Source: Ignavibacteriota bacterium (GTDB taxonomy: Bacteria; Bacteroidota; Ignavibacteria; UBA10030; UBA6906). From it: DNA of 64,000 nucleotides. The position numbers and the translations under genes were made by a program. This document shows positions 18,086 to 63,593 of the stretch, in pieces; within the stretch, counting starts at the first letter, position 1, and each line of letters begins with the position of its first letter. The notes beneath the pieces were generated by a model, which was given only the letters and a program-made list of their open reading frames with translations, did not search any database and had not been told where the DNA came from. The stretch covers positions 783,005 through 847,004 of the forward strand of contig CAWIOS010000012.1 of NCBI GenBank assembly GCA_963837815.1, in the 5' to 3' direction.

Positions 18086-18171
18086 GTCCTTCCCTCCGTT
18101 TGCAGTATTAGACAAATATATTGCAGTTTCGGTTTATTTGCAAGAAATTGGAAAAAAGACCGGGATTGCCG

Positions 18172-31411: not shown

Positions 31412-32689
31412 TCAGGTTTTCTTGCCGAAATCCTTGTCGATGGTGATGAGCGCGGTAACGATGAATCCGGGGATGGTGGAGAGCATCACCCAGAGGTAGA
31501 AAGTCGGATACCCGAGCCATTCCTGGAGCGCGCCGCTGAACATGCCGGGGACCATCATCCCCAGAGCCATGATTCCCGTGCAGATCGCGTAGTGCGCGGT
31601 CTTGTGTTCCCCCTCGGAGACCATGATCATATACAGCATGTACGCGGTGAATCCGAATCCGTACCCGAACTGCTCGAGAGCCACGGCGACGTTAATCAGC
31701 AGGAAATTGTCCGGCTGCACCTGCGACAGATAGACGAACATCAGGTCCGGCAGATGCATGACGATGACCATCGGCCAGAGCCAGAACCTGAGCCCCCTGC
31801 GGGGGATGACGAATCCCCCGAGAAGCCCGCCGGCCGTCAGCGCGACGATGCCTACCGTCCCGTACACGATTCCCACATCGCTCGTCGAAAGACCGAGCCC
31901 TCCCTTTGTCCTCGGATCGAGAAGGAACGGCGAGACGAGCTTGATGAGCTGCGACTCGGCAAACCTGTAGAGGAGAAGGAAAGCGAGCGTCGAGAGGATG
32001 CGGGGTCTTGTGAAGAACGCCCCGAAGACTTTGAAGAAATCCGCCAGAGGGGTCGTCACTCCCCCGCTCCGGACCCGGGCGTCGCCGGCAGGGTACGGAA
32101 GCATCAACCTGTGATAGAGGAAGAAGGCGAAGAACATCACGGCAAGTATGCCGAATGTCAGCGACCAGGCGAGCGCCGTATTCCCCCCCGTGTGCGTCTC
32201 GACTGTCCCTGCAAAGAACACGAGCGCACCCTGTCCGGTCACCATCGCGATCCTGTAGAACGTTGAGCGTACGCCCACGAATGCCGCCTGCTCGTGCTCC
32301 TGCAGACCCAGCATGTAGAAGCCGTCCGCCGCGATGTCGTGGGTGGCGGAAGCGAATGCCATGAGCCAGAACAGGACGAGCGTGGCACGGAAGAAGCCCT
32401 GCACCGGGATCGTGAATGCGACCGCGGCGAGCGCAATGCCCAGGATGAGCTGAAGCGTGACGATCCAGAGCCTCTTCGTGCGGACCAGGTCAACAACCGG
32501 TCCCCAGAGCGGCTTGATCACCCAGGGAAGGTAGAGCAGGCTCGTGTAGAGTGCGATATCGGTGTTGGATATGCCCATCCGCTTGTACATGATCACCGAT
32601 ACATTCAGGGCGATGACATACGGGAGCCCTTCGGCAAAGTACAGGGAGGGAATCCAGGCCCACGGGTTGCGTCGTTCAGGCCGGTTCAT
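31412..32689 (-). CDS. ampG: MFS muropeptide permease AmpG family
   Basis: 425 aa, 12-14 TM; AmpG-type N-terminus (…[56 protein letters not shown]…). Confidence 0.8.
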
Positions 32690-33282
32690 GCGCCGGCCCC
32701 TTTTTCGCCGGCCGATGCGGACGGAGGATCAGGCGGCGGGACCGGTGGGACGAGCAGCCTGAATCCGATCAGGTGATTGACTGTCGTTTTCCCCATCGTG
32801 AACGGGGATTCTTCCACAAATGTGAATCCGAGCGCCTTATACCACGCAATCGTCGGGGCGTTTTCGGACATGACGCCGAGCCAGACCCTGTCGTAGCCGG
32901 CCCCCCGTGCGGCGCGGAAAGCCTCCTCCATGAGCTTCGATCCAAGCCCGTGCCCCTGGCACGCGGGCAGGACATAGATCGAGGCGACGTGACAGCGCCC
33001 GGAATCCCGATCGGACGACATGATCATGTACCCGCCCGGATTCCCGTCCAGGAACGCGATGTACCCGCTCGTGGAGGGTTTCCGGAGGTTCCGGACGAGC
33101 GCGTCCGTCGAATAATGCTCGTCGTGGTAGGCCCGGAGGTCCGCCTCGGGGATGAACATTCCGTACGCGGCCTTCCATGTCTCCCAGCCGATTCGCCGGA
33201 CGTCGGGTATGTCACCTTCGGTCCAGGGCCTGATCAACGCAGTGTGAACACCGGGCCCGCTCTCACTCATCGCATCCGTCAA
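32686..33282 (-). CDS. GNAT family N-acetyltransferase
   Basis: 198 aa; acetyl-CoA binding motif (VLPACQGHGLGSKLMEEAFRAARGAGYDRVWLGV). Overlaps ampG start by 4 nt and the amidase 3' end by 20 nt, so translationally coupled. Confidence 0.75.
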   Translation of the reverse strand: MTDAMSESGPGVHTALIRPWTEGDIPDVRRIGWETWKAAYGMFIPEADLRAYHDEHYSTDALVRNLRKPSTSGYIAFLDGNPGGYMIMSSDRDSGRCHVASIYVLPACQGHGLGSKLMEEAFRAARGAGYDRVWLGVMSENAPTIAWYKALGFTFVEESPFTMGKTTVNHLIGFRLLVPPVPPPDPPSASAGEKGAGA

Positions 33283-35056
33283 GAAAATCGTCTATGCCGT
33301 CGACGATCCGACCGGCAATCCTGTGCCGGAACTCCGGATCAATCAGGTTCATCTCATCGGAAGGATTGGAAACAAACGCCATTTCGACAAGGACATTCGG
33401 GAGCTCCGTGGGCGCATTCATCGAGAAATTGAAGCTCCCGACGTTGCCGAAGAGCGGAAGTCCGGTTTTCAGCATATTCCTGATGATCGCCATCGCGAGG
33501 GGACGGTAGCAGATGTATTTATAGAACGTCGCGGTCCCCCGCGTGTTCTCCGGATTTGTCGTCAGTCCGATCGAATTGGAGTGGATGCTTATCAGGATAT
33601 CCGCCCCCGACGAGAGGACCTTCCGCACGCGGTCGGCCATTGGAACGTCGGGATCCCCGTCCCTCGTGAGGATCACGCGGGCGCCGCGGTCCTCGAGCAT
33701 GGATTTAAGATCTTTCACGACGGCAAGATTTATCTCCTTCTCGAGGGCACCGGTTGACCCGAGCGCACCGAGGTTGTCCCCGCCGTGACCCGCGTCCAGC
33801 GCGAACGTGAGCGCCTTGATTTTGAGTTTCTCCGGCTGGCGGCGGACCTTGATGACGAGTCCCGCGGGGTTGTAGCCGATTTCATATCCCCAGATCTGCC
33901 TGTGCTTGAGCTCGATCGTGATCCGGAAGACGCCCGCGGAGGGCTCTGTGTAGTACACGTTCTGGATCTCGCGGGTCGTGAGTTGCTGTATGATCCAGTT
34001 CGTGTTCGACGTCGCGCCGTAGAGATCCACGTTGATCCGCGTCGGTCCGGTCTCCGTCGTCGAAGAGTACGGAAGCCGCAGCGGGATCCCGACCGTCACG
34101 TAGTCGTACTTTTCGTCCCCGTACACCATGCAGTTCTCCGTGAGGGCCGCGGGAAGACGGGCGCCCTTCGGGATCAGGTCCACGTTTTCCGCGGCGATCC
34201 AGGCTTCCTGGCCCGGAGCCAGCGCCACGCGGTACGCGCTCCCGTGCTTCCCCGTAATCGCAAGACGTATCCCGGGATTGATGAACGACATCTTCGCGCC
34301 CCCCAGCCGATCCTCGCCGAGGCCGTAGGCGAGCGCGGGCCGCTCCCCCTTTGTGACGCCGATGTACGGAAAGTCGGCCGGCCTCATCGTGACGGTTCCC
34401 TTCGAGACCGTCTCCAGGGCCGCGCCCGAGCCGTTCTCCAGCCTGAACCTGACCTGATGAGAAGAAAGGGTATCATCATCCCGCACGGTGTACACACCCC
34501 GGTAAATTCCCCCCAGGCCATGGGCGTACGCGGGCTTCACTTCCGTCATCGGGATCCCCAGGTCGCATGACGCTTTGCATCCCGGCGTCCCCTTGAACTG
34601 CACCTCCAGCCGGTCATCTTCGTTCAACCAGACGTCGTCAGAGGGTTCCGTCATGATCGTGTCAATGACAAGGACGGAATCCGGTGAAGTCTCCGGCGGC
34701 GCTTCGCGGATGACAAGGAACGACTTTGAAATGGAATCCCCCTTCGCACCCGTCGCAGTAAGCGTGAACCGGTTTTCGCCGACATTCAGCGTAAGGAGGC
34801 CCGCCGTGGCCCCCGAGGGATAGACCTTCAGGGGGGAGCCGTTGATCGTGAGCCTGTTCCCCGGCACGGTACCCGCGGAGAGCCTGTATGTGCCCGTGGA
34901 AGCCCGAACCGTGTCCGACTCCGGAACGACAAGGCGGATAAAATTCGGGTGCGGGGGAGGGGATTGCTGGGCATCGGCGGAGGCGATCATCGTCAGAGAG
35001 AGGACGAGTGCCACACTCAACGACGCCAGAGGTGTGCGCATGTCAATGGTTTTCAT
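33263..35056 (-). CDS. Periplasmic N-acetylmuramoyl-L-alanine amidase (Amidase_3 / AmiC-like) with N-terminal accessory beta-rich domains
   Basis: 597 aa; signal peptide MKTIDMRTPLASLSVALVLSLTMIASADA (GAGGGA RBS). C-terminal Amidase_3 motifs ALDAGHGGDN…EKEINLAV…ISIHSNS…(Zn ligands H/E/H). Confidence 0.8.
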   Translation of the reverse strand: MKTIDMRTPLASLSVALVLSLTMIASADAQQSPPPHPNFIRLVVPESDTVRASTGTYRLSAGTVPGNRLTINGSPLKVYPSGATAGLLTLNVGENRFTLTATGAKGDSISKSFLVIREAPPETSPDSVLVIDTIMTEPSDDVWLNEDDRLEVQFKGTPGCKASCDLGIPMTEVKPAYAHGLGGIYRGVYTVRDDDTLSSHQVRFRLENGSGAALETVSKGTVTMRPADFPYIGVTKGERPALAYGLGEDRLGGAKMSFINPGIRLAITGKHGSAYRVALAPGQEAWIAAENVDLIPKGARLPAALTENCMVYGDEKYDYVTVGIPLRLPYSSTTETGPTRINVDLYGATSNTNWIIQQLTTREIQNVYYTEPSAGVFRITIELKHRQIWGYEIGYNPAGLVIKVRRQPEKLKIKALTFALDAGHGGDNLGALGSTGALEKEINLAVVKDLKSMLEDRGARVILTRDGDPDVPMADRVRKVLSSGADILISIHSNSIGLTTNPENTRGTATFYKYICYRPLAMAIIRNMLKTGLPLFGNVGSFNFSMNAPTELPNVLVEMAFVSNPSDEMNLIDPEFRHRIAGRIVDGIDDFLDGCDE

Positions 35057-35140
35057 TCGGTTTGTATTCCCTCAGAATGTGGGAGATATCATTCATGACC
35101 CGGAAAGACGCTTTCCGTGCAGATTTCCTCAACGACGGGT

Positions 35141-36490
35141 TCAGTATATGTTCGCAATGGACGTGCCGGGAAAGTAATGAGAAAGTATGGAGTCGGACTC
35201 GTACCCGAGATCGCCCATGACGGCTGCGCCGATCTGGCAAAGGCCCACCCCGTGCCCCCATCCCGCTCCCGTGAGAACGAAACGGCCGGGAACGCCGCCT
35301 TTGATTTCACTCCTGTCGACCACGAATGCCGAGCTGTACAGGTGCGACGGCGAGAGCGTCCGGCGGATCTCGAGCTCCTTGCCGATCGTCAATACCCTCT
35401 TTTCCCCGACGATCTTCAGGAGCGTGAGCCGCCCCGACGGACCCCGCTCGACCGGCGCAAGGTCAAGAATAGCCCCGAAATCGATGCCGGTTTTCTCCCT
35501 GATGAGCGCGGCGATGTTCTCCTGATCATACTCAGCTTTCCACCGGTAGAAATCGGCCGTTTCCTGATCGTACTTGAGGAGAACCTGTGAGAGGATGCGG
35601 GAGTCCGCCGTGTTGCAGAATGCGCGCGGGGAGCTCCTGATCCATCGGTCCGCCAGATCCTCCCGGCTGACATCGGGGAGAGAAAGAAAGCCGGGAAGGC
35701 GGTCAGACGGGGGAATGTCGGCCACGTTGACAAGGTACGGGATCCCGACGGGCTGCCAGACATTGCCAAACGGCTCGGTGATTCCTCCGCAGGATTTCGA
35801 GAACCGGGCATCGCAGATGCGGCCGTCGTGCATGACCACCTGTCCCCGTGTCAGGTTCACGGCCTGACTGACCGCCGCCGTGTTCGACTTCGTTACACCC
35901 TGGTACCGCTGGCAATGGTCGTCTGCGCAGACGTCGAAGAGCTCGTGTTCCTCCCTGTCGTACCACCTGACAAGGCGATCGCTTTCCCCTGTAATCGCCG
36001 GGAGACGAATTCCCTCCTCTTTCAGCCGGCGCGACCGTTCAATCTGCGCCAGGAGCCAGCTTCGGGAGGTGATCGCGTGCGCCTTCAGGAGATTCATGGA
36101 ACTCCCGGCGCTCATTTCCGACGAGATGACGCTCTCAAGATAGTCTTCGACCGGGACGACATTGATCGCCACGACATCGCTCCCCTTCGTCACGAGCCGC
36201 AGGGCCCCCGTGAACCGCTGGTCTTCTTTCCGCTCCCAGTGGAAGCGGATACCGATGACGACGCTGCGGATGACGAACGAGACCCCCGCCCCCCCGGACT
36301 GAGTCAGGAGAACCCCGGAATCGAACAGGGAACGTTTGCCGCCGCACTCTATGAGTATGGAAGCCCCGGAGACCGAGGCCCGGATCCGCCCGCGGAGAGT
36401 CCCCCCCGATCCCGGGACGTCAAAATCCCCTTCCACGTCCACAGCCGACGCCGTGAGAATGCCGACGGTTATTGTTGGTTCTGCCGTCAT
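35141..36490 (-). CDS. SpoIID/LytB-domain protein (amidase enhancer / lytic transglycosylase-type)
   Basis: 449 aa; hallmark C-terminal SpoIID motif GAGWGHGVGLCQIGAAVMG; start abuts stop of NagZ fusion gene (36490/36492). Confidence 0.8.
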   Translation of the reverse strand: MTAEPTITVGILTASAVDVEGDFDVPGSGGTLRGRIRASVSGASILIECGGKRSLFDSGVLLTQSGGAGVSFVIRSVVIGIRFHWERKEDQRFTGALRLVTKGSDVVAINVVPVEDYLESVISSEMSAGSSMNLLKAHAITSRSWLLAQIERSRRLKEEGIRLPAITGESDRLVRWYDREEHELFDVCADDHCQRYQGVTKSNTAAVSQAVNLTRGQVVMHDGRICDARFSKSCGGITEPFGNVWQPVGIPYLVNVADIPPSDRLPGFLSLPDVSREDLADRWIRSSPRAFCNTADSRILSQVLLKYDQETADFYRWKAEYDQENIAALIREKTGIDFGAILDLAPVERGPSGRLTLLKIVGEKRVLTIGKELEIRRTLSPSHLYSSAFVVDRSEIKGGVPGRFVLTGAGWGHGVGLCQIGAAVMGDLGYESDSILSHYFPGTSIANIY

Positions 36491-36491
36491 G

Positions 36492-39431
36492 TTACTGCCC
36501 GGTTCCTGTCACCCCGAGAGCCCGCATCACGGCATCGTTGACGGCGGGGCGGACCCTGGCGATCTTCTGGTTGGCGCGTGTCGGAAAGACCCGGTTTGTG
36601 AGGAATATGACCGCAAGATTGCGTGACGGATCAGCCCAGATGCAGCACCCGGTGAAGCCGGTGTGCCCGAACGACGCGCCGGAGAAGAGTGCTCCGGCGG
36701 ACGAGCCATGCGGCGACTTCATCTCCCATCCGAGCCAGCGTTCCTGTCCCGGGGCGCGCTTCTCGATGAAATCCGAAACGGTTTTCTCGCTCAGGTAACG
36801 CCTGCCGGCGTAGACTCCCCTGTTGAAGAGCATCTGCATGTATATCGCCAGATCGCTCGCAGTGGAGAAGAGTCCGGCGTTTCCCGACACGCCCCCCATG
36901 AACGCGGCGTTCTCGTCATGGACGGCTCCCCGGACAATGGTCTTCCGCCAGGAAGTATCAAGCTCCGTCGGCGCGCAGCGGGCACGGAGGGATTCCGGGG
37001 GGACGTATGTCGTGTTCCTCATGCGGAGGGGAACGAAGAATTCCCTCTTCACGAAGGCATCGAGCGTCATTCCGGTGACTTTTTCGACGAGTTTCCCGAG
37101 CGTGATGAACCCGAGATCGCTGTACACGGTGGAGTCGCCCGGCGCTGCGACGAGGGCTGTCGCGGCGATCGTGTCGATCACCCCGGCAGGGTCCGGGCAT
37201 TCGAGCCAGAGCCTGCGGAAGGGGGGAAAGCCTCCCCTGTGGAGCAGCAGGCTGCGGATTGTGACTCCGGCCTTCTGCCCGGTTTCAAACCGGGGGAGGT
37301 ACTTTGCGACCGGATCATCAAGCCCGATCCTCCCGCTGTCGACAAGTTTCATGACGGCCGACGTCGTTGCAATGACTTTCGTGACGGATGCGAGATCGTA
37401 CATCGTCCCCTCGTCCACAGGAGGCGAGGCAGGATCGTATGTCAGCCTCCCGAACGACCTGTCGTAGACGAGCAATCCGTCTTTGACGATGGCGAGCTGG
37501 CCCCCGGGAAACGCCGAATCCGCCACGGCGCTGTTGACGATGCCGTCCACTCGCTGCAGGTCTTCGGGATCAAATCCCGCCAGGGACGGGTCATCGCGCC
37601 TGAGCTGCGTCTGCGGAAGATCCAGGCCGGTTCCGAAGGGGTATTTCCCCGGAATGGAGACAGGGAGCCGGCCGTGCACCGGGATCTCGCCGAAGAGAGC
37701 TTCGGCCGCCGCTTCGCTTACAGGCTCGTCGTCGCCGTAGAGGCAGACGATCGATCCGGCATCCGGGATGCTCCCGGCGATATACGGGTTCCCGAATGCA
37801 AGGACAACGAGGGGGGTGTTCGTCTCCGCGACACGGGCGGCGAACGTGCGGAGGTAGTCGGGAAGCTCGATTCTCCCCGATGCCGTGCGGACTTTCACAA
37901 ACAGGGCCAGTATTGCCGCGTCTCCTTTCCGTATGCGTGTGACCGCGTCGTTCAGCTCGCGCACGTCGCTCCCGGGGGTAAGGCGGAGTATGTCGCTCCC
38001 CGGCGAGCGGTGCCGGAGGAGCTGGGCGAAGTAGGCCCCGACGGGTTCGCTTGTGGCAGGGCTGCCCGGCCTGTCCACGTCAGTCCTGTCATCCTCCGTG
38101 TCCCCGGCAAGAACGGCGACGATGTGCATGGGGCCGTCAGGGGGGAGGGGAAGCAGGCCGTTTTTGTTTCTGAGAATTGTGACGGCGTCCTGGGCGATCT
38201 CACGGGCAAGATGCCGGTTCGGCCTCGTGCCGATATGTGCGCCAATGGCGTCAATATCAACGGTCCGCCCCCTGTCAAGCCCGAGCTGATGCTTCATTGC
38301 GAGTATCCGGCGAACGGACTCGTCCACCCGCTCCCGGGGTATTTCCCCCCGCCGGACGGCAGCCACCACGGCGTTCACCGCCAGATCGGGATCCGGGGGA
38401 ACGAGGAGGATGTCCGCCCCCGCCCGGACGGCAAGAACCGCCACGGTATCCGCCGGGTACCCGCGCGTGAGCGCCCGCATCTCCAGTCCATCGGTGACGA
38501 TCAGCCCGTTGAACCCGAGTTCCTTCCTGAGGAGGCTCGTCACCATCGCCGCGGAGAGGGAGGCGGGGAGGCCGAGTGAATCAAGCGCGGGAACCGCAAG
38601 ATGGCCGATCATGACGGACTGGACGCCGGCGTCGACGGCCGCCCGGAACGCGGCCAGCTCCACCGTGTCGAGACGGGCGCGTGAAAGATCAATGACGGGG
38701 AGTTCGATATGCGAATCGGTTCCCGTGTCACCGTGTCCCGGAAAATGTTTCACGGTGGCAATGCAGCCGCCGTCGATTGTCCCCCGGATGAACGATGCCA
38801 CCATCGTGCGGACGAGCGCCGGGTCATCGCCGAACGAACGGGTGTTGATGACCGGGTTGAGAGGATTATCGTTGATATCGGCAACCGGCGCATAGTTCTG
38901 GTGTATTCCGATTGTGCGCGCTTCCACAGCCACCGCTTTCCCCATCCGGTAGGCGTACTCTGCATTCCGCGTCGCCCCGAGCGCCATGGCATCCGGAAAC
39001 CGTGTCCCCCTCCTGACGCGCATGGCGATCCCCCGCTCGAAGTCGGACGCGACAAGGAGGGGTATCCGGGAGAGGGACTGCAGCCGGTTGAGGAGGACCG
39101 CCTCGGAATAGACGTCCCCCTGGGCCATGATGATGCCGCCGACCCTGCGGACCGTGACGAGCCGCTCGAGGCGCTCAAAGAGGTCGCTGTCGGTGCTGTA
39201 GTAGTGACCGAACGCGCGCACCATGACCATCTGGGAAACCTTCTCTTCGAGCGACATCGAGGAGAGAAGCGAGTCGAGTGCTCCCGGGGTCCCCCAATCG
39301 GAGGGGACGGCGGGCTGGAGCGGCGCGGCGCGTCTCTGCAGCTGCGCGGGGATCGTTGCAGGGGGAGGTGCACATGCGGAGAGCAATCCGGAGAGAACGG
39401 CAGCCGAAAGGAAGAGGAGATGTCTTTTCAA
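36492..39431 (-). CDS. Lipoprotein fusion: GH3 beta-N-acetylhexosaminidase (NagZ-like) + serine beta-lactamase/PBP-like (AmpH/class C-type) domain
   Basis: 979 aa; TTG start at 39431 with AAGGAGGA RBS; lipobox LLSAC. GH3 N-terminal motifs (KHFPGHGDTGTDSH, IVTDGLEM); C-terminal domain with S-x-x-K (LASVTKVIATTSAVMKL) and penicillin-binding fold; ends HTGFTGCCIWADP. Confidence 0.8.
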   Translation of the reverse strand: MKRHLLFLSAAVLSGLLSACAPPPATIPAQLQRRAAPLQPAVPSDWGTPGALDSLLSSMSLEEKVSQMVMVRAFGHYYSTDSDLFERLERLVTVRRVGGIIMAQGDVYSEAVLLNRLQSLSRIPLLVASDFERGIAMRVRRGTRFPDAMALGATRNAEYAYRMGKAVAVEARTIGIHQNYAPVADINDNPLNPVINTRSFGDDPALVRTMVASFIRGTIDGGCIATVKHFPGHGDTGTDSHIELPVIDLSRARLDTVELAAFRAAVDAGVQSVMIGHLAVPALDSLGLPASLSAAMVTSLLRKELGFNGLIVTDGLEMRALTRGYPADTVAVLAVRAGADILLVPPDPDLAVNAVVAAVRRGEIPRERVDESVRRILAMKHQLGLDRGRTVDIDAIGAHIGTRPNRHLAREIAQDAVTILRNKNGLLPLPPDGPMHIVAVLAGDTEDDRTDVDRPGSPATSEPVGAYFAQLLRHRSPGSDILRLTPGSDVRELNDAVTRIRKGDAAILALFVKVRTASGRIELPDYLRTFAARVAETNTPLVVLAFGNPYIAGSIPDAGSIVCLYGDDEPVSEAAAEALFGEIPVHGRLPVSIPGKYPFGTGLDLPQTQLRRDDPSLAGFDPEDLQRVDGIVNSAVADSAFPGGQLAIVKDGLLVYDRSFGRLTYDPASPPVDEGTMYDLASVTKVIATTSAVMKLVDSGRIGLDDPVAKYLPRFETGQKAGVTIRSLLLHRGGFPPFRRLWLECPDPAGVIDTIAATALVAAPGDSTVYSDLGFITLGKLVEKVTGMTLDAFVKREFFVPLRMRNTTYVPPESLRARCAPTELDTSWRKTIVRGAVHDENAAFMGGVSGNAGLFSTASDLAIYMQMLFNRGVYAGRRYLSEKTVSDFIEKRAPGQERWLGWEMKSPHGSSAGALFSGASFGHTGFTGCCIWADPSRNLAVIFLTNRVFPTRANQKIARVRPAVNDAVMRALGVTGTGQ

Positions 39432-39434
39432 GCG

Positions 39435-40373
39435 TCAATCCTCCTTCATGCCGGCCATCGCCAGCAGGAGGGCGCCGTGCGCCGGTCCGTTCATGGGCGG
39501 GTCGATATGCGCCGCGGGAACGCTCTTCCTGATCTCCGCTTCCAGCATGCGCGAATAGATCGAACCGTGGTCGATAAGACCGCCGATCATCACAACCCCG
39601 GCCCCGCCCCGCATGCCGAGCCGGTCGATGGCGGCAACCACCTGGAGGGCAAGGGCCCCCGAGGCGCGGGAGAGTATGTCCAGCGCCACAGCATCGGATG
39701 ATTCCGCCGCTTCAAGAACCGCCGGCGCAATCGATGGTATGTCGAATTTCTCCCTGTACACGGCTGCAATGATCCTCTCGCGCGTTGCGAGGCCGAACCG
39801 GGACGAGAGGACCATGCGAAGCCGGCCGGCCTCCCCCCTTCCGTCGATCTCCCTCGAGACCGCCTTGATGGCCTCGAGTCCGATACGGTAGCCGCTCCCT
39901 TCATCCCCGATCACTCTTCCCCACCCGCCGATCGAGATTGTCTCGCCGGCGGGCGATTTTCCCATGACGACCGAGCCGGTCCCCGCGACGGCGACGACAC
40001 CGGGGCCCCCGTTGAACGCCCCCTCGAGCGCGACGCGGCCGTCGGACTGGATGGAGATGGGAACGGGAGGAAGTCCCATCATACGGAACCGGGCGTGGAT
40101 CGCATCGGTCAGGACCTGACGGTCCCGTTCGGACCCCGCCCCCGCGAGTCCCAGCACGGCGGAGCCGATATCGGCAACGGGTCGGGCGGCGGTCTTTGCG
40201 AGACCTGCTATAAGCTCCGCCAGATTCAGCGCGACAATGTCGATGCCGAACACATTCTGATTGGAGCCGTTCCCCCTGCCGCGCGCGAGAACCGTGCCGG
40301 TACCATCGGCGAGGAGACCCGTGGTCTTGGTGCCGCCGCCGTCAACGCCGAGCACGAGAGAGTGATGTGCCAA
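39435..40373 (-). CDS. BadF/BadG/BcrA/BcrD-type ATPase: N-acetylglucosamine / N-acetylmuramic acid kinase (MurK/NagK-like)
   Basis: 312 aa; N-terminal ASKHA phosphate-1 motif LGVDGGGTKT; overall BadF-type sugar kinase pattern. Confidence 0.75.
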   Translation of the reverse strand: MAHHSLVLGVDGGGTKTTGLLADGTGTVLARGRGNGSNQNVFGIDIVALNLAELIAGLAKTAARPVADIGSAVLGLAGAGSERDRQVLTDAIHARFRMMGLPPVPISIQSDGRVALEGAFNGGPGVVAVAGTGSVVMGKSPAGETISIGGWGRVIGDEGSGYRIGLEAIKAVSREIDGRGEAGRLRMVLSSRFGLATRERIIAAVYREKFDIPSIAPAVLEAAESSDAVALDILSRASGALALQVVAAIDRLGMRGGAGVVMIGGLIDHGSIYSRMLEAEIRKSVPAAHIDPPMNGPAHGALLLAMAGMKED

Positions 40374-40378
40374 TGGGA

Positions 40379-42913
40379 TTATTTCAGAAGTTCTATTTTT
40401 GTTGTCCTGACAAATCGGATTCCCCCCCCCGCATCCGATGCGATCATGCGGACGAAGTACACCCCGCTCCCGAACGAGGCGGCGTTCCAGACCGCCGAAT
40501 GCGAGCCGGCCGCCACCTGACCGTCCACGAGGCTCGCGACCTCCTGGCCCAGCAGGTCATACACTCTCAGCGAGACGCGCACGCCGGCCGGGACGCGGTA
40601 GGCGATGACCGTCGACGGGTTGAACGGGTTCGGGTAGTTCTGGCTCAGGGCATACTCCGCAGGAATCGCGGGAGCCGGCGGCGGGACGGAAACGATCACG
40701 GACCTCAAGAGTTGAAGCTGGTCGACGAGGACCAACCCCGATCGCGCGCTCACCCCGGGGAGATAGCGGAACTGGAACGCGTCAAAGCGCATCTGCCCGC
40801 CGAGGTTCGGAGCGCCGAGCCAGGAACCGACGGAGTCGTTGGCAAGATCCCATTCCACCAGCCTCCATCCAACCCAGTCGAGCGGGTACCAGCGGCTCAC
40901 CTTGTGGTTTTGTGGCCTCCCCCCGGGATAGATGTCGACGCTGTCCTCGATGCCAAACCGGAACTGGCTCAGATCGCCCTCGTTGTACACGAACGCCTCA
41001 AGCACCGTCCCCTGTTTCTGAAAGAGGATCGAGCGCTCCGGAGCGAGAGTATCGAGCGGCACGCGCAGGAGCCAGGACGACGCGGCCGTGTCCCATGCGT
41101 ACCTGAGCAATCCGGCGACCGGATCGCCCGCCAGTGCAGGGAACGCGGTGCTCTCGATAGAGTCGAACGACGCCGTGTCGACGCCCGTCGTGTAGGGCGC
41201 GGTCATCGGCTGCCTCCACTGCACCGGGCGCGTATTGAACGAGTCAATCGTCGTTGTGATGCGCGACAGGGGCTGGACGGAAAATGACCAGACGAGCGGT
41301 GAAGTGCCCGGGATGATGTTCCCCGTCATATCCTTCGCGCCGCTCACGCTTACCGTATAGGATGCGCCGGGCTCAAGTCCTCCGGTGACGAAGATATTGA
41401 CGCCGCTCCTGGAGGGCGTCCCGATGTACATGACGGTCCGCGCGAGCGAGGGGAGACCGCCGATTTGTCCGATCCTGAAATTCGCCGTGGTGACCGTCGC
41501 CGGGTTCAGCGGTTCATCAAACGTGATGTTGACCGTGGTGTACGGCGTCGCCACCGTCATCGCGGAATCCGGGAACCGGGAGAGGATGACGGGCGGGTTC
41601 AACCGGACAATTTTCGTCCGGAAGCCGAGAATGAACGGATGGCCGGGAGTCCCGACGCCGGTCCCGTCAACAGGCTGGCCCGAGGCGCTGCGGGCGTTCG
41701 TATCGACCTTCACGGTGAAATTGACAGGAAACGGGAACGGAGCGACCGGCGTGAACGTCAGGATCGTGTTGTCCGGGTCCCACGAGAGACTCCCGGTGAC
41801 CGCGGGGGCGATCGAAAAGGCCGCGCGGACGGATGCGGTGTCCATCGGTGCGGAGAAGTGTATCCCAACCGCCGTCCTCGGGTCCACGGACGTATCCCCG
41901 TTCACCGGACTCGTCGAGAGGACAACCGGGAACCCGGTCGATGCGAGCGTCCGGTCAACGAACACGGTGGCGCCGGTTCCCACGACAACGGCGATGGAAT
42001 CCGTCCTGTAGCCGGGAGTCTCGAAACGGACGGTGTAGGAACCGGGAGCGAGGCTGTCGAACATGAAGAAGCCGTTCTTGAACGCGTCCCCGCCGTACAC
42101 CCTGCCGGAAGGAAGCAGTCTCACGCGGGTATTGTTCACGGGAGCCCCGCCGGCAACATCGGTCTGTATCCCCGCGATGATGCCGCGCGGATCGGCCGGA
42201 ACGCCGAAGTACTGCATGAAGGCGTTCCGGATGGCATAGGCTTCCATTTTGTGGTAATCGTTGTTCAGGAGACGCCGGCACTCCGGATAGAAGTCATGGA
42301 ACGAACCCTCGGAGAGCTCTCCCGGCATCAGAAGGCCGCTCAGCACGCCCAGGTTGTACCCGCCCGCCGGACCTCCGTAAAATGTGTAGTCAAGCCAGGT
42401 GCTCGTGCTGCTCGTCCGGAGCATCCCCTGTATCGCCGGACCGATCAGATTCGACATCGTGACGTCCTGCGGGAACGCGGCAGTGCGCGTCGGGATGTCT
42501 TCCTTCACGAGCATCAGTGTATAATTGATGCTCGTGTTGTCCGCCAGCCCGCTCGCGTTGGAGTGTATCGAGTGAAACCAGTCGACGTTGTTCGCGTTGG
42601 CGAGCTGCCAGCGCGCCGTGAGGCTCGGCTCGTCGTTCCCGTCGGGATACGTCGTGTCGTTCGACGTCCGGGTCAGTATGACCGTCGCCCCCTGCCGCCA
42701 CAGCAGCTCCCTGAGGAGGAGCGCCTTCTCGAAGTTGCTTTCCGATTCCCAGAAATTCACACCCGGATCCGGCTGGACATTCCGGTCGTCACTCGAATAC
42801 CCGCCGTGCCCCGGATCGATGCAGAATTTCAACCCCGAGAGGTCGGACCTCTGCGCCACCGCGAGAGACGCAGAAAGGACGACGATGCATGTCAGAGGAA
42901 GTCTCCTGCTCAT
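40379..42913 (-). CDS. T9SS-secreted N-acetylmuramoyl-L-alanine amidase (N-terminal Amidase_3 catalytic domain, Ig-like/beta-sandwich repeats, C-terminal Por-secretion sorting domain)
   Basis: 844 aa; signal peptide; Amidase_3 motifs CIDPGHGGYSSDD…NFEKALLLREL…FHSIHSNA. C-terminal about 80 aa …QNYPNPFNPSTVIAYRV…VYDLLGQEVASLVDG…GSGVYFVRMIASDAGGGIRFVRTTKIELLK matches type-A T9SS CTD. Confidence 0.75.
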   Translation of the reverse strand: MSRRLPLTCIVVLSASLAVAQRSDLSGLKFCIDPGHGGYSSDDRNVQPDPGVNFWESESNFEKALLLRELLWRQGATVILTRTSNDTTYPDGNDEPSLTARWQLANANNVDWFHSIHSNASGLADNTSINYTLMLVKEDIPTRTAAFPQDVTMSNLIGPAIQGMLRTSSTSTWLDYTFYGGPAGGYNLGVLSGLLMPGELSEGSFHDFYPECRRLLNNDYHKMEAYAIRNAFMQYFGVPADPRGIIAGIQTDVAGGAPVNNTRVRLLPSGRVYGGDAFKNGFFMFDSLAPGSYTVRFETPGYRTDSIAVVVGTGATVFVDRTLASTGFPVVLSTSPVNGDTSVDPRTAVGIHFSAPMDTASVRAAFSIAPAVTGSLSWDPDNTILTFTPVAPFPFPVNFTVKVDTNARSASGQPVDGTGVGTPGHPFILGFRTKIVRLNPPVILSRFPDSAMTVATPYTTVNITFDEPLNPATVTTANFRIGQIGGLPSLARTVMYIGTPSRSGVNIFVTGGLEPGASYTVSVSGAKDMTGNIIPGTSPLVWSFSVQPLSRITTTIDSFNTRPVQWRQPMTAPYTTGVDTASFDSIESTAFPALAGDPVAGLLRYAWDTAASSWLLRVPLDTLAPERSILFQKQGTVLEAFVYNEGDLSQFRFGIEDSVDIYPGGRPQNHKVSRWYPLDWVGWRLVEWDLANDSVGSWLGAPNLGGQMRFDAFQFRYLPGVSARSGLVLVDQLQLLRSVIVSVPPPAPAIPAEYALSQNYPNPFNPSTVIAYRVPAGVRVSLRVYDLLGQEVASLVDGQVAAGSHSAVWNAASFGSGVYFVRMIASDAGGGIRFVRTTKIELLK

Positions 42914-43833
42914 CGGGGGGTTTCGGCATACGTTATCACGAGTATCCCGCCTTCGAGAGTGCTGAAGGCAATTTCGTCAGCGACCGGAGAGCACTGGGGG
43001 AACATCCCGTTGATGTGTGAAGCGGAGGTGAGATCCCCTTCCGTTTTTCCGTCGGGGGAGACGAACGCAATGGCGGATGACCGTATCCTATGCCCGTCAT
43101 CCCTGTCCGCCATATAGATGAGCCACCTTCCGTCCCGGGTCCAGGCCGGGGCGTCCCGGCGCCCGATCCTGAGTGGATGACTCCCGTCGGCGCCACAGAC
43201 AAATGTCCCCCTGTCCATCTCGTACGCGACGAGCTTCGAGCCGTCGGGGGAAAGTGAGGGCCAGACGTAGCTTCCGTTGCCGAGCGGATCGACGAGCGAT
43301 TTCACACCGTCACGGACCACGGCGATTTTCGTATCCTCGACGCCGAGGACCGAGACGACGCCCGGGGGCTGAATGGCCGGCTTCACGCCCTGGATTTCGC
43401 CGGCAACGGAGAACACGACATCGGATCTGACAAATGAGGGGAGCGAAAGTGATCTTCCCGAGGCAAGGACCGACGGGGGGCCGCCGGAGAGATTGCGGAC
43501 GACGACTTCCTGCACCCGTTCACCCGGCAGGGCCCCCGGGAGCGTCCGGCGCCAGGCGATCTGAGATCCGTCGGGGGATATCGTGAAGCCGTACCCCGAT
43601 CCCCTGTCGGCGGTTATCTGCACTGCATCTCCCCCGGCCCCGGGACACGCCCATATGCCGCCGAAATCCGAGGCGGTGTAGTAGATCGTTTTCCCGTCGG
43701 GCGACCAGCGGGGTGCAGACCAGAGGCGGGCGCTCCCCAGGGGGAGTGTCCGGACGGTCAGTACTTTTATCTGAGCTTCCAGCGGGAGAGAGACGACAAA
43801 GAGGAGCAGTGCAATCAGACTGCGCATACCCAC
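42910..43833 (-). CDS. TolB-like periplasmic beta-propeller (PD40 repeats) protein
   Basis: 307 aa; signal peptide; repeated SPDGK/SPDGS blades (WSPDGKTIYYT, ISPDGSQIAW, LSPDGSKLVAY, VSPDGKTEGD). Start overlaps upstream gene stop by 4 nt. Confidence 0.65.
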   Translation of the reverse strand: MGMRSLIALLLFVVSLPLEAQIKVLTVRTLPLGSARLWSAPRWSPDGKTIYYTASDFGGIWACPGAGGDAVQITADRGSGYGFTISPDGSQIAWRRTLPGALPGERVQEVVVRNLSGGPPSVLASGRSLSLPSFVRSDVVFSVAGEIQGVKPAIQPPGVVSVLGVEDTKIAVVRDGVKSLVDPLGNGSYVWPSLSPDGSKLVAYEMDRGTFVCGADGSHPLRIGRRDAPAWTRDGRWLIYMADRDDGHRIRSSAIAFVSPDGKTEGDLTSASHINGMFPQCSPVADEIAFSTLEGGILVITYAETPR

Positions 43834-46328: not shown

Positions 46329-46341
46329 AGCGTCCGTCGTG

Positions 46342-49305: not shown

Positions 49306-49400
49306 CGCCTGCGGCGGGATGCAAAAAGCGCTCCCCGCCTGTGGCGGGATGCAAAAAGCGCTCCCCGCCTGTGGCGGGATGCAAAAAGCGCACATTGATT
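49306..49400. repeat. Tandem array of three 30-bp direct repeats (ggcgggatgcaaaaagcgctccccgcctgt), each an imperfect palindrome/hairpin; third copy degenerate
   Basis: Visible at 49313-49342, 49343-49372, 49373-49395 (plus a partial leader copy from 49306). Each unit has arms ggcggga / tccccgcc around an A5-containing loop. Lies 5 nt downstream of the epimerase stop and about 40 nt upstream of the nagX start on the minus strand. Confidence 0.8.
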
Positions 49401-51770: not shown

Positions 51771-54149
51771 TTATTTGATGAGGAGCATTTTTTTCGTCAT
51801 TGTAAACGCGGCGGCGGTCATTCGCACGATGTACATGCCGCTCGCCCGGTTTGACCCGTTCCACGGGACGGCGTACCTCCCGGGGGCCTGCACACCGTCG
51901 ACAAGCCGCTCCACCTCCTGGCCGAGCATGTCGTACACGATTATCGTCACCCTGCCCGACACAGGGAGCTGATAGCCGATCGTTGTCGAGGGGTTGAACG
52001 GGTTCGGATAATTCTGATCCAGCCCGAACGTCGACGGGACTCCGGGCGGGGTTTCCACGCCCGTGACCTGCACGGTGCGGAACTTGTACACCGGAGACCA
52101 TGCGCTCGTCCCGATAGAGTTGGTCGCCCGGACCCTCCAGAAATAGATCGTGAAATACTCGAGCGGGGGAGCACCCAGCGCCGTGTCGGCGACGCCGGCC
52201 GAGTCCATGACGGGAGAGGCGAAATCCGCGCTCTTTCCGATCTGCAGACGGTACGATACGGGGCCGGTCGAGAGGGCCGGACTCCACCGGAGCGACAGGA
52301 ACACAGGGAGGTCGGGCTGCATGTTCGCCGGATACAAGAGAGACGGCGTCGCCGGGAAACCTGTCCGGAAATTCGACGCCGCGGACCAGGAGCTTGTCCC
52401 CCCGCCACTTGAAGCCCGCACACGCCAGTAATACAATGCCTGCCCCTGGAACCCCTTTACGAGCCGGAACGTGTCCGTAAGGGCCGACTCATTCCAGACC
52501 AGGCCCGACGCAAACGCCGGGTCCGTCCCGACCTGAAGCTGGTAGCCCGATGCAAGGAGCGATGAACGCCATGTGACGCTCAGGCTTTCGGCCACGTCGG
52601 ACGTGCCGCTCAGGGGCGCAGAGAGAAGCGGAGCGGGAGGAGCTGAGAGTATTATGATGTTGCTCGTGTCGCTCTCGACATAGTTCCGGCTGAGGGCTGT
52701 GACGAGATAGTACCAGGGTCCACCCGGGGACGGGGGAGCCGGAGGGACGAAATATCTATTTCCTTCGACGGAGAGTATGTTCAGCGGGTTCGCAAGCTCG
52801 GACGCCGCCGGGCGGTGGTCAAAACGATACACGACATACCGGTACGCGGTATCGCCGTTCGGCGAGACAATGGGAAGGTCCCACTGGATCGCGGCGGGAG
52901 CCACGCCGGGAAGCGCCGCGTAACGGATGCCGCGTGGCATATAGGGAGGGGTCATATCCTTCCACGGCATCGGCGCGATGAGCGCCGGGTACGCGTACAC
53001 GCTGTTCCGGAGTGTGTCGGCGATCCCGCCCAGGTTCCCCGAAGTAATATCGTTCGTCGTGAACTGAATGTTCCCCTGCGTGTTCACGTCGGCCCTTGAG
53101 AACCGGATCTGTTGTGCGATCTGGGAGGCGTCACCGAACGAGCTCGTCCCAATCCTGTACGTCGCAAGCCCCGGGTACGAGTGCCGCCCGTGCGCCGCCA
53201 CCGAGTCGGACCACCAGGGCTCGAGTGTCGCGTAGTCCTGCGGCCCGCCGAACTTCCAGTAGAGCTGCTGGGCCAGGTAGTCGACATACTGGCCGTCGAG
53301 CCAGGCCATAGGGTCGCAGTAGATAACGGAGTAGTTGTCGTTTCCGCTCGTGTTCGGGGGCATACCGTCCTTCCAAATACCCGCAGGGCTCATGCCGAAC
53401 TTCACCCAGGGTTTAATCGCCTTTATGCTGTCGTAAATCGCCTGAAGGAGTATATTGACGTTGTCGCGCCGCCAGTCACCCCTGTCGGAAATTCCGCGCC
53501 AGTTGAGGCCGTAGGAGGAATCGTCCTGGTGCGCGGTGATCCCCTCGGCGTAGAAATAGTCGTCCATATGTATCCCGTCAACGTCGTAGCGGCGGGTCAC
53601 ATCGAGTAGGACGCTGGTGACGTACGCCCTGACATCCGGCAGCCCCGGGTCGAGCATCTCGAGGTTTCCGATCGTGAGTATCCACCCGGGATGCCGGACC
53701 GAGACATGCATGGAGCTAATGGGATATGCCCCGATGGAATTGACCGCCCTGTAGGGATTGAACCACGCGTGCAGCTCCATCCCCCTCTTGTGAGCCTCAT
53801 CGACGGCAAACTGGAGCGGGTCGAACGGGGACTGGGGAGGGGTCCCCTGCGACCCGGTCAGCCAGTATGACCAGGGCTCGATCGAGGACTGATAGAAGGC
53901 GTCGCACTCCGGGCGCACCTGAAATATCACCGCATTGAACCCCTCCGCGCGGAGGCTGTTGAGTATCGATACCAGCGAGTCCTTCTGCCTCTGGACCGGA
54001 CCGCCAAGAACCGGGGGCCAGTCGGTGGCCCCCACAGTCGTGAGCCAGACGCCCCGGAACTCATGCTTCGGCAAGACCTGGGAAGTGCAGGTCAGTACCA
54101 CCGACAGGAGGAGTGCGCCGACGGCCAACGGCAGATGAAGAGGTTTCAT
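51771..54149 (-). CDS. T9SS-secreted GHL10 (glycoside-hydrolase-like family 10 / YngK-type TIM barrel) protein with FN3-like repeats and Por-secretion C-terminal domain
   Basis: ORF 51771..54200; start MKPLHLPLAVGALLLSVVLTCTS at 54149. GHL10 N-terminal motif EFRGVWLTTVGATDWP…NAVIFQVRP…HAWFNPYR; middle FN3-like repeats; C-terminal …DQNYPNPFNPSTTIGYQL…VYDMLGQEVERLVDG…GMYIVRMTAAAFTMTKKMLLIK type-A CTD. Confidence 0.7.
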   Translation of the reverse strand: MKPLHLPLAVGALLLSVVLTCTSQVLPKHEFRGVWLTTVGATDWPPVLGGPVQRQKDSLVSILNSLRAEGFNAVIFQVRPECDAFYQSSIEPWSYWLTGSQGTPPQSPFDPLQFAVDEAHKRGMELHAWFNPYRAVNSIGAYPISSMHVSVRHPGWILTIGNLEMLDPGLPDVRAYVTSVLLDVTRRYDVDGIHMDDYFYAEGITAHQDDSSYGLNWRGISDRGDWRRDNVNILLQAIYDSIKAIKPWVKFGMSPAGIWKDGMPPNTSGNDNYSVIYCDPMAWLDGQYVDYLAQQLYWKFGGPQDYATLEPWWSDSVAAHGRHSYPGLATYRIGTSSFGDASQIAQQIRFSRADVNTQGNIQFTTNDITSGNLGGIADTLRNSVYAYPALIAPMPWKDMTPPYMPRGIRYAALPGVAPAAIQWDLPIVSPNGDTAYRYVVYRFDHRPAASELANPLNILSVEGNRYFVPPAPPSPGGPWYYLVTALSRNYVESDTSNIIILSAPPAPLLSAPLSGTSDVAESLSVTWRSSLLASGYQLQVGTDPAFASGLVWNESALTDTFRLVKGFQGQALYYWRVRASSGGGTSSWSAASNFRTGFPATPSLLYPANMQPDLPVFLSLRWSPALSTGPVSYRLQIGKSADFASPVMDSAGVADTALGAPPLEYFTIYFWRVRATNSIGTSAWSPVYKFRTVQVTGVETPPGVPSTFGLDQNYPNPFNPSTTIGYQLPVSGRVTIIVYDMLGQEVERLVDGVQAPGRYAVPWNGSNRASGMYIVRMTAAAFTMTKKMLLIK

Positions 54150-54223
54150 AGGAAATGATGGTTCCGATTGACGCGCGGCGGATTTCAAGGATCCCGGCAC
54201 ACTGGAATCTACTGAATTTCCCG

Positions 54224-55769: not shown

Positions 55770-55854
55770 GACGCACTCCTGTGTTGGTGATTGGTGATGT
55801 GGAACCGCGTGCCAATGTGAAACGGTGAAGCGATGGTGCCAGTGAACACAACGT

Positions 55855-57081: not shown

Positions 57082-57122
57082 GAGTTCGCCGTTTCCATTA
57101 TGCTGTCACGAAAAGACTGCAC

Positions 57123-58139: not shown

Positions 58140-58158
58140 TGAATACCCCGGTTCAGTT

Positions 58159-63406: not shown

Positions 63407-63593
63407 GTCAAGCTCCTGGATGATGCGTACGGGATAGCAAAAACTCATAGACAGAGGAAAGAAGAGATAAGAAGGATAGCAATAGGCGCGGCCGTCAAAG
63501 AGAGGTGAGCCATTGCGGCCAAACCAGTGTAGGGGAATGTATGAAACAGCGATTGGAGTGTCAAGTGGTGCAACTAAATATCCTTCTCCCCAA

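Follow-up and report, generated by a model that had tools for sequence, protein, structure and literature searches.

The window analysed here is a stretch of 64,000 nucleotides from an Ignavibacteriota bacterium. Its minus strand carries at 40379..42913 a gene with an ATG start, the 844-aa product of which is, judging by sequence and structural model, a predicted zinc-dependent N-acetylmuramoyl-L-alanine (MurNAc-L-Ala) amidase with several additional domains and a tag for the type IX secretion system (T9SS); the open reading frame, its coordinates and its length agree with an earlier note on this DNA. The protein consists, in this order, of a signal peptide, an Amidase_3 domain, a CarboxypepD_reg domain, two Big_5 domains, a CBM11-like domain and a T9SS type-A C-terminal sorting domain (CTD), and the mean pLDDT of its AF2 model is 89.2. 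The CarboxypepD_reg domain (251-322), both Big_5 domains and the CBM11-like domain, 190 residues without a family match, are absent from the earlier note. By inspection, residues 1-20 (42854..42913, minus strand) form a signal peptide of the Sec type, MSRRLPLTCIVVLSASLAVA with Q following the cleavage site; a basic n-region, a hydrophobic core and an AVA-Q site can be read by eye, and the same pattern is present in the orthologues.

The catalytic domain (residues 29-238; 42200..42829, minus strand) matches the Pfam model PF01520 (Amidase_3) over residues 31-231 with E 6.5e-14 and 52.8 bits, above the gathering cut-off of 27, and the identity proposed earlier is thus upheld at the HMM level. 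In an alignment with CwlD (7rag), the candidate zinc ligands fall on the His of GHGG (H36), the Glu of SEKD (E56) and the His of SIHLNA (H117), and the catalytic E202 on the Glu of LIECGF; none of the four varies in 90 orthologues. The loss of zinc ligands by which the earlier note would have recognised a pseudo-amidase is thus not seen. The pLDDT over this domain is 70-96 per 10-residue block, and its best Foldseek matches are CwlV, CwlD, AmiC2 and LytH (TM 0.80-0.87, E about 1e-10, 20-22% identity). It is also the most conserved domain of the protein, with a median identity of 69% in distant orthologues. One could suppose that the target of the Amidase_3 domain is a different amide-linked glycoconjugate, or that this domain is vestigial and the protein chiefly an adhesin. 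We consider this highly improbable: the four catalytic residues are invariant in the part of the protein that is conserved best, all characterised relatives that we found are MurNAc-L-Ala amidases, and the gene neighbourhood described below is specific to peptidoglycan.

The compact amidases CwlV (1jwq), CwlD (7rag), Nostoc AmiC2 (5emi) and S. aureus LytH (7tj4) share the fold of our protein together with its His/Glu/His set and the additional Glu; however, they act on the wall of the producer, fixed in the cytoplasmic membrane or the wall or close to them, and have neither the T9SS CTD nor the Ig-like stalk nor the CBM11-like module. Their partners GerS and ActH are unrelated to the PD40 propellers discussed below. 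E. coli AmiA, AmiB and AmiC, with the activators EnvC and NlpD, belong to the same enzyme family. Our protein differs from them in its lower structural similarity (TM 0.61-0.70 for AmiA/AmiB), in having no match to the AMIN and Tat models of Pfam and NCBIfam, and in bearing an outer-membrane export tag.

This tag, the last domain of the protein (residues 759-844; 40382..40639, minus strand), matches TIGR04183 over residues 760-826 at 34.3 bits (the NCBIfam cut-off is 23) and PF18962, Por_Secre_tail, at 24.6 bits, slightly under the gathering cut-off of 27. The earlier assignment to type-A sorting domains therefore passes the HMM check, and the two strings quoted in its favour are found at 759-768 (NYPNPFNPST) and 839-844 (KIELLK). 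None of P761-N765, G789, G817 and Y819 varies in 90 orthologues, and amidase orthologues down to 28-31% identity retain the domain. It occupies the extreme C-terminus, with six AF2 strands over 767-842, behind a linker (741-749) with pLDDT below 50. Two other proteins with T9SS C-terminal domains are encoded in the window, as is a PorV/PorQ-family T9SS outer-membrane protein (57123..58175, minus strand; NF033709, 196.7 bits against a cut-off of 90; PF19572). The latter is the only component of the system seen within the 64 kb, where none of the core genes sprA/sov, porK-N and porU is found. Export of the amidase by the T9SS is a prediction from sequence.

Between the catalytic and the sorting domains lie a CarboxypepD_reg-like beta-sandwich (residues 244-323; 41945..42184, minus strand; PF13620, 34.5 bits against a cut-off of 32.3), which is all-beta in the AF2 model, and two bacterial Ig-like domains of the Big_5 type (residues 331-433 and 443-546; 41276..41923, minus strand; PF13205, E 4.3e-22 in two stretches), also modelled as strands. 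The Big_5 domains probably serve as a stalk or spacer. They are followed by a CBM11/CIA30-like beta-sandwich (residues 551-738; 40700..41263, minus strand), which has the beta-sandwich fold of carbohydrate-binding modules and conserved Trp residues (W607, R652, D657, W675, W680, G682, W683 and W688 are conserved); it has no match in Pfam or NCBIfam at E <=1 and so belongs to no curated CBM family.

The family comprises more than 800 full-length orthologues, all of them from uncultured members of the Ignavibacteriota and of related phyla of the FCB group, and looks like a single, highly conserved orthologue; among species representatives, an Ignavibacteriota MAG comes closest, with 83% identity. 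Our search of the literature on T9SS-exported amidases and peptidoglycan hydrolases, on peptidoglycan-utilisation loci and on Ignavibacteria in connection with peptidoglycan yielded nothing on the family and no characterised member.

Directly upstream, the gene at 42910..43833 (minus strand) encodes a PD40 (TolB-like) beta-propeller of about 305 aa (PF07676, E 1.9e-17), and its stop overlaps the start of the amidase gene (ATGA). Since the PD40 family is about 305 aa long, the true start is likely the ATG at 43827. The protein has a Sec signal, bears no C-terminal sorting domain and is not a lipoprotein. The PD40 gene adjoins the amidase gene in 38/38 loci of at least 18 kb and in 72/80 loci overall; in all the long loci the two genes have the same orientation and overlap or nearly abut. 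De novo clustering of the neighbours showed PD40 to be the sole universally conserved one. Fusions of PD40 with the amidase, which could have indicated an interaction, do not occur among the top 120 PD40 homologues. This conserved partner was not mentioned in the earlier note.

A precedent for such a pair is offered by Tannerella forsythia, where potempin inhibitor genes lie directly upstream of T9SS cargo hydrolases, the KLIKK peptidases (PMC9890683); there, too, a gene for a small exported partner immediately precedes that for a T9SS-tagged hydrolase. Potempins are peptidase-inhibiting outer-membrane lipoproteins of 98-132 residues (PMC9890683), whereas PD40 is a non-lipoprotein propeller of about 305 residues, and its inhibition of the amidase is putative. 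By this analogy, PD40 would most plausibly be a dedicated partner that holds or inhibits the amidase during its transit through the periplasm.

The pair is flanked on the same strand by genes of peptidoglycan catabolism: AmpG, NagZ-like, NagK, NagB-like, NagX, NlpC/P60 and epimerase-like. Most of the matches are below the equivalog cut-offs, and the names denote likeness at the family level; the exported or cytoplasmic placement of the products was read from their N-termini. Upstream of PD40 are encoded, all on the minus strand, a NagB-like protein of 812 aa (43968-46406), an exported class-A beta-lactamase-fold protein (46342-48096) and a NagX-like membrane protein (48115-49263), each named from NCBIfam and Pfam, with all NCBIfam matches under the equivalog cut-offs. 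Further upstream are an L-Ala-D/L-Glu epimerase-like MR/MLE enzyme (49400-50578, minus strand) with a Tat signal (TIGR01409, 19.4 bits, cut-off 16.7) and an NlpC/P60+SH3 lipoprotein (50529-51770, minus strand), both assigned to stem-peptide processing. An Asp/Glu racemase gene is also among the neighbours, and a NamZ gene lies 21 kb from the pair on the opposite strand.

The gene at 51771..54200 (minus strand), 9 kb upstream of the amidase gene, encodes a DigH/YddW-like GHL10 glycosidase (PF02638, E 1.4e-64) with fn3/Ig domains and a T9SS CTD (TIGR04183, 36.9 bits). Its identity to E. coli DigH, which also matches PF02638, is 37% over 366 aa (E 1e-74). E. coli DigH is specific for denuded, i.e., peptide-stripped, glycans and is reported at the division septum of the producer (PMC12288456). 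The homologue in the window would keep the same logic, with the amidase acting first and DigH second; its fn3/Ig domains and T9SS CTD, however, lead us to predict action outside the cell, unlike that of E. coli DigH. We propose that it cuts denuded glycans there. A DigH-type homologue is found at most 10 kb upstream of the amidase in 11/38 loci, and the presence of several equal-sized longest contigs in both match lists suggests that the two families share contigs. The view of the earlier note that the amidase would act on exogenous murein is strengthened by this T9SS-tagged homologue and by the catabolic neighbours, neither of which that note had mentioned, the activity itself being predicted.

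Downstream of the amidase gene, also on the minus strand, follow the genes for a NagK-like kinase (39435-40373), a lipoprotein in which a GH3 NagZ-like domain is fused to a beta-lactamase/PBP4B-like domain (36492-39431), a SpoIID/LytB protein (35141-36490), a second amidase (33263..35056), a GNAT protein (32686-33282) and an AmpG-family permease (31412-32689). The intergenic gaps among the genes of 31412..40373 range from -20 to +84 bp, and no credible minus-strand terminator-like site is found among them; a sigma-70 promoter scan was uninformative (4 sites against 3.9 expected).

The second amidase, as proposed earlier, is exported and encoded on the same strand about 5 kb away (5.3 kb); no credible terminator-like site separates the two amidase genes, the minus-strand matches there being weak and inside coding sequence. 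Its description as a conventional AmiC-like enzyme can be retained in part. It has an Amidase_3 domain (420-589, E 3.3e-35) and resembles the AmiA/B/C type in its AMIN-like region; however, the protein is 597 aa long, about 300 of its N-terminal residues have no domain match, and the AMIN match of 19.9 bits is under the cut-off of 20.5. The argument for a division of labour between the outside and the periplasm turned out to be weak, as a second amidase is found at most 10 kb from the target family in only 3/38 loci. Since the SpoIID/LytB frame as called has no signal-peptide-like N-terminus, it is uncertain that this protein and the second amidase form a periplasmic pair.

It might be argued here that the T9SS-tagged amidase itself works on the producer's own wall, where it would serve turnover or the separation of cells and be regulated by the TolB-like PD40. 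In E. coli, Tol-Pal, the amidases and DigH are linked in division, and the present set of amidase, TolB-like partner and DigH homologue mirrors the one that processes septal peptidoglycan there (PMC12288456). The recycling genes AmpG and NagZ are close by, and the closest structural relatives CwlD, LytH and AmiB each require a protein activator. The family is widespread in these phyla, and its catalytic domain is very highly conserved, unusually so for a scavenging exoenzyme, which could point to a housekeeping role. Nevertheless, we regard such a role as quite unlikely. The sorting domain is strongly conserved in all the orthologues examined, down to 28-31% identity, and the DigH homologue also bears one; septal work could be done by the separate exported amidase of the AMIN type; the combination of a long Ig stalk and a CBM-like module typifies surface enzymes; and the fold is closer to CwlV, AmiC2 and LytH (0.80-0.87) than to the helix-regulated AmiA and AmiB (0.61-0.70).

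We searched 80 related loci by tblastn for the neighbours of the pair. Conservation of the catabolic array with the amidase throughout had to be rejected: the NagX-like, beta-lactamase-fold and NagB-like genes accompany the PD40-amidase pair in about 7 of the 38 long loci. The other recurrent neighbours (an MFS transporter, an iron repressor, a TPR protein, DUF4159, a transglutaminase and prolyl-tRNA synthetase) look unrelated. The catabolic neighbourhood is thus lineage-specific, and a nutritional reading may fail for the family as a whole.

It is at this point that antagonism or predation should be considered, in which the amidase would be a bacteriolytic weapon against neighbours, especially Gram-positive ones, nutrition would be secondary, and PD40 would be an immunity protein. 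Such a role would draw on the same evidence of export and catalysis as foraging does; in most lineages the pair is not beside catabolic genes, a long Ig-like stalk with a binding module fits an enzyme that reaches the wall of another cell, and a partner gene that is always adjacent and has an exported product recalls the gene pairs of effectors and immunity proteins. Stand-alone Amidase_3 endolysins are able to lyse Gram-positive cells. Type VI amidase effectors (Tae), mostly of NlpC/P60-like folds, and their periplasmic immunity proteins (Tai) are similar in that the gene for the exported peptidoglycan amidase has beside it that of a partner with a signal peptide, but they differ in the amidase folds, in the secretion route and in the site of delivery, the periplasm of the target cell. 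We nonetheless believe that a weapon is unlikely. The gene is located inside a catabolic array both in the window and in 7 related loci, the family looks like one highly conserved orthologue and not like a variable toxin, an amidase acting from outside cannot get to the wall of Gram-negative neighbours that are intact, and a producer whose enzyme is beyond its own outer membrane needs protection in transit only.

The reading that we favour, with fair though far from full confidence, is that the amidase works at the cell surface or outside the cell and begins the foraging of foreign peptidoglycan by removing its stem peptides. It would leave the cytoplasm by Sec, fold in the periplasm and cross the outer membrane via the T9SS using its type-A CTD, to end up attached to the surface of the cell or released into the medium. 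The three Ig-like or beta-sandwich spacers would keep the enzyme at a distance from the producer cell, the CBM11-like domain would bind it to the peptidoglycan glycan strands of other bacteria, dead or living, and the catalytic domain would release stem peptides from MurNAc. The co-encoded DigH homologue with its T9SS tag would then act on the denuded glycans so made. In this lineage, exported NagZ-like and NamZ glycosidases may then act on the sugars, an AmpG-family permease with NagK-like and NagB-like enzymes may take up and catabolise the products, and the P60 endopeptidase, the Tat-exported L-Ala-D/L-Glu epimerase-like enzyme and the Asp/Glu racemase may also handle them.

A precedent for extracellular foraging of this kind is the AmiE/NagZ/NamZ set of B. 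subtilis, an amidase plus exo-glycosidases that digest peptidoglycan sequentially outside the cell to importable sugars and peptides (PMC8054146); the window, too, has NagZ-like and NamZ genes. B. subtilis is Gram-positive and has no outer membrane, so its set needs no T9SS, DigH-type enzyme or PD40 partner. AmiE belongs to a different amidase family with a beta-lactamase fold.

An active amidase that crosses the producer's own periplasm poses a problem of self-protection. We presume that PD40, made together with the amidase from an overlapping frame, would remain in the periplasm and hold or inhibit the enzyme in transit, thereby sparing the wall of the producer. It is tempting to go further and to propose that PD40 is a new class of periplasmic holdase or inhibitor dedicated to a peptidoglycan amidase on its way to the T9SS, and that the pair and the DigH homologue constitute a conserved extracellular 'strip then cut' module for harvesting peptidoglycan across Ignavibacteriota and allied FCB phyla; we put this forward only tentatively, as possible but rather doubtful.

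In soils, sediments and sludge, a large amount of organic carbon and nitrogen is tied up in peptidoglycan, the extracellular degraders of which are poorly understood. If the foraging reading is true, a widespread uncharacterised enzyme family (more than 800 sequences) would provide the entry point to peptidoglycan foraging in Ignavibacteriota-like bacteria. The amidase would be the first T9SS cargo in the literature that we searched to be aimed at bacterial cell walls, working in tandem with a DigH-type glycosidase, and the invariably co-encoded PD40 protein would be a candidate answer to the problem of self-protection. Should the 'strip then cut' module be real, it would represent a route of bacterial necromass turnover by abundant uncultured heterotrophs.

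The open reading frame of 844 aa begins with ATG and occupies 40379..42913 of the minus strand, as the earlier note had it, and both domains proposed there were recovered by profile search. The Amidase_3 domain (Pfam) covers residues 31-231 (E 6.5e-14, 52.8 bits, cut-off 27), and the type-A T9SS sorting domain is recognized by NCBIfam TIGR04183 (34.3 bits, cut-off 23); Por_Secre_tail (Pfam, residues 760-825) gives 24.6 bits, slightly below its cut-off of 27. Pfam also reports CarboxypepD_reg (residues 251-322) and two Big_5 Ig-like domains (E 4.3e-22). By inspection, the N-terminus MSRRLPLTCIVVLSASLAVA, followed by QR..., reads as a predicted Sec signal peptide. The AlphaFold2 model, built from an alignment of 90 orthologues (mean pLDDT 89.2), is divided into the signal peptide (residues 1-20), the amidase domain (29-238), a CarboxypepD_reg sandwich (244-323), the Big_5 domains (331-433 and 443-546), an additional all-beta domain (551-738), which is called CBM11-like here after its fold, a disordered linker (741-749) and a C-terminal beta-sandwich domain (767-842).

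The N-terminal domain aligns with the solved structures of CwlD, Cwp6 and LytH. The alignment identifies H36 (the His of GHGG), E56 (the Glu of SEKD), H117 (the His of SIH(L)NA) and E202 (the Glu of LIECGF), all invariant among the 90 orthologues. The best fold matches of the modelled catalytic domain are CwlV, CwlD, Nostoc AmiC2 and LytH (TM 0.80-0.87), and the match to the helix-regulated division amidases AmiA and AmiB is weaker (TM 0.61-0.70). A pseudo-amidase, which the earlier note had considered, is not borne out, since the four catalytic residues are intact and the confident model matches solved amidases. The same invariance, together with the gene neighbourhood, makes a substrate other than peptidoglycan unlikely.

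The protein search returned 815 relatives; nearly all of the best 120 are full-length, at 815-908 aa, and share one domain list, and the only names they carry at source are 'N-acetylmuramoyl-L-alanine amidase', 'Ig-like domain-containing protein' or 'hypothetical protein'. A relative is encoded in 467 stretches of species-representative genomes, and 80 of these loci were fetched. All 80 come from MAGs, labelled Ignavibacteriota/Ignavibacteria, 'Bacteroidota bacterium', Kryptoniota, Neomarinimicrobiota, Calditrichota, Zhuqueibacter or Melioribacteraceae; the nearest relative among them belongs to an Ignavibacteriota MAG (83% identity). In the more distant orthologues the median identity is highest in the amidase domain (69%), with 46% in the C-terminal domain and 30% in the linker. 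Even orthologues of 28-36% identity keep a signal peptide, the catalytic motifs and a C-terminal 'NYPNPFNP ... K-x-x-L-x-K' sorting domain; judging by this persistence, the export tag belongs to the protein as a conserved, integral component and is no chance match.

Two independent comparisons, tblastn of the window proteins against the 80 loci and clustering of every ORF in the 38 loci of at least 18 kb, single out the same universal neighbour, the gene 42910..43833 (minus strand) of an exported TolB-like beta-propeller protein (PD40). It is found in all 38 long loci and in 72 of the 80 overall, nearly always directly upstream of the amidase gene and abutting it; in two loci, L075 and L078, it closely follows the amidase gene instead. 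The two genes overlap in the window, where the PD40 stop codon and the amidase ATG share the sequence ATGA. The protein of ~305 aa has a signal peptide, neither a lipobox nor a C-terminal sorting domain, and is annotated by JGI as 'Tol biopolymer transport system component'.

This pair lies in a nearly continuous minus-strand array running from 63448 down to 26965, whose genes are assigned at the family level only because most equivalog-level scores are below the cut-offs. It starts at 63448 with a TonB-dependent receptor, a PorV/PorQ-family T9SS protein (NF033709, 196.7 bits, cut-off 90), a TIG-domain lipoprotein and a protein of 520 aa that has a strong T9SS C-terminal domain and matches propeller repeats faintly. 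These four genes (54306-58175 and 60296-63448) precede the gene of a DigH-like GHL10 protein with fn3/Ig and T9SS C-terminal domains (51771..54200); the layout resembles a polysaccharide-utilisation locus, although no SusD-like gene is present there. The next two genes encode an NlpC/P60+SH3 lipoprotein (50529-51770) and an MR/MLE (enolase-superfamily) L-Ala-D/L-Glu epimerase-like enzyme (49400-50578) with the Tat signal RRTFLK (TIGR01409 above cut-off). They resemble YkfB/YkfC, but the apparent export of both points to the periplasm as the site of stem-peptide processing. Then come a NagX-like membrane protein, an exported class-A beta-lactamase-fold protein, a NagB-like protein, the pair itself, a NagK-like kinase and a 979-aa lipoprotein (36492-39431). 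In the latter, GH3 NagZ-like N- and C-terminal domains are fused to a class-C beta-lactamase/PBP4B/AmpH-like domain, which would combine glycosidase and DD-peptidase-like functions in one exported protein. The SpoIID/LytB-domain protein (35141-36490; TIGR02669, 164.8 bits) has, as called, neither a signal-peptide-like nor a transmembrane N-terminus, an unexpected feature in an enzyme that should work on peptidoglycan. The second amidase anticipated in the earlier note is indeed encoded at 33263..35056 (597 aa, Amidase_3 E 3.3e-35); it has a signal peptide and a sub-threshold AMIN match. A GNAT acetyltransferase, an AmpG-family permease, a GT2 glycosyltransferase (29908-31401), a DUF4922 protein (28836-29858), an Asp/Glu racemase and a GH43-like lipoprotein complete the array. 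On the plus strand, a NamZ exo-beta-N-acetylmuramidase (GH171) is encoded at 18121-19407, with a 729-aa DUF3160 protein directly 3' of it (19424-21613, plus strand); NamZ also recurs close to the pair in L005, L013, L015, L039 and L040.

The stretch 49333-49395 (minus strand), which separates the epimerase gene from NagX, holds ~2.7 tandem copies of a 30-bp unit, GCGCTTTTTGCATCCCGCCACAGGCGGGGA. Two of the copies yield GC-rich hairpins, identical to each other and each followed by a T run, and no other terminator-like structure is convincing. This may reflect duplication of a terminator or attenuator, with the array divided there into two transcription units. Considering that the intergenic gaps from NagX to AmpG are short (-65 to +134 bp) and that convincing hairpins occur only upstream of NagX, it is plausible that both amidases belong to one operon, as previously proposed. 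The second amidase is near the pair in only 3 of the 38 loci. The upstream block (NagX, beta-lactamase-fold, NagB-like) accompanies the pair in about 7 of 38 (L001, L005, L013, L017, L020, L021, L040), and the downstream block (NagK-like, GH3 fusion, GNAT, AmpG-family) in about as many (~7/38), a largely overlapping set. The DUF4922 gene accompanies the cluster in L005, L013, L020, L021 and L040. That many lineages have no catabolic genes flanking the pair would suit an antagonistic or predatory weapon; we find this doubtful, given the catabolic setting in this window and a family that is a single, highly conserved orthologue.

The GHL10 protein shares 37% identity over 366 aa (E 1e-74) with E. 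coli DigH (YddW, b1491), both match PF02638, and it passes TIGR04183 (36.9 bits). DigH is reported to be a hydrolase specific for denuded glycans, i.e., strands whose peptides were removed by amidases (PMC12288456). The T9SS-tagged form is a large, widespread family (~790 aa) from the same uncultured lineages as the amidase, and several of the longest contigs are of equal size in both match lists, which suggests that the families share contigs. In 11 of the 38 loci the 10 kb upstream of the pair include a DigH-type homologue, which is within 1 kb in L024 and L033 and directly adjoins the pair in L057. A periplasmic housekeeping role would account for the strong conservation of the amidase and would echo the E. 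coli set of Tol, amidase and DigH; we regard it as still less probable than a weapon, considering the conserved C-terminal sorting domains of both the amidase and the DigH homologue and an architecture of the surface-enzyme type.

We infer instead a digestion of foreign peptidoglycan outside the cell, for which the AmiE/NagZ/NamZ system of B. subtilis is a precedent of sequential action (PMC8054146). The amidase would pass the inner membrane via Sec and the outer membrane via T9SS, be kept at a distance from the producer's surface by the Ig-like stalk, use the CBM-like module to attach to foreign peptidoglycan, and remove the stem peptides. The DigH-type cargo would then cut the denuded strands into fragments. 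Sugars and peptides would be trimmed by the exported NagZ-like, NamZ, P60 endopeptidase and beta-lactamase-fold (DD-peptidase-like) proteins and the Tat-exported epimerase; the AmpG-family permease would import the sugars, and the NagK-like and NagB-like enzymes of the cytoplasm would, with the racemase, channel the products into metabolism. What the analysis establishes is the domain content, the catalytic residues, the folds, their conservation and the gene order; where the proteins act, on which substrates and in what sequence is inferred.

T9SS cargo folds in the periplasm, so the amidase would already be active on its way past the sacculus of its producer. The invariant coupling would be explained most simply if PD40, made in stoichiometric amounts with the amidase, bound it in the periplasm and kept it inactive. 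The near-invariant motifs of its family (DDGH, GNGSYxWP and GRRDAPxWTRDG in the homologue alignment A4) match no catalytic or binding signature known to us, and no PD40-amidase fusion occurs among the top 120 PD40 homologues. An analogy for the inhibitor is provided by potempin genes, located directly upstream of T9SS KLIKK peptidase genes (PMC9890683). PD40 may also have the opposite role, that of an activator, by analogy with CwlD-GerS, LytH-ActH and AmiB-EnvC: the amidases structurally nearest to this domain all depend on activation by a partner.

The Amidase_3 catalytic family and the T9SS secretion signal are well known, and many members are auto-annotated as amidases. In the searchable literature we found no description of a peptidoglycan amidase as T9SS cargo, of its fixed architecture with the CBM11-like module, of its obligate PD40 partner, or of its pairing with a T9SS-tagged DigH homologue. 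The newest aspect of this amidase system is the question of the role of PD40.
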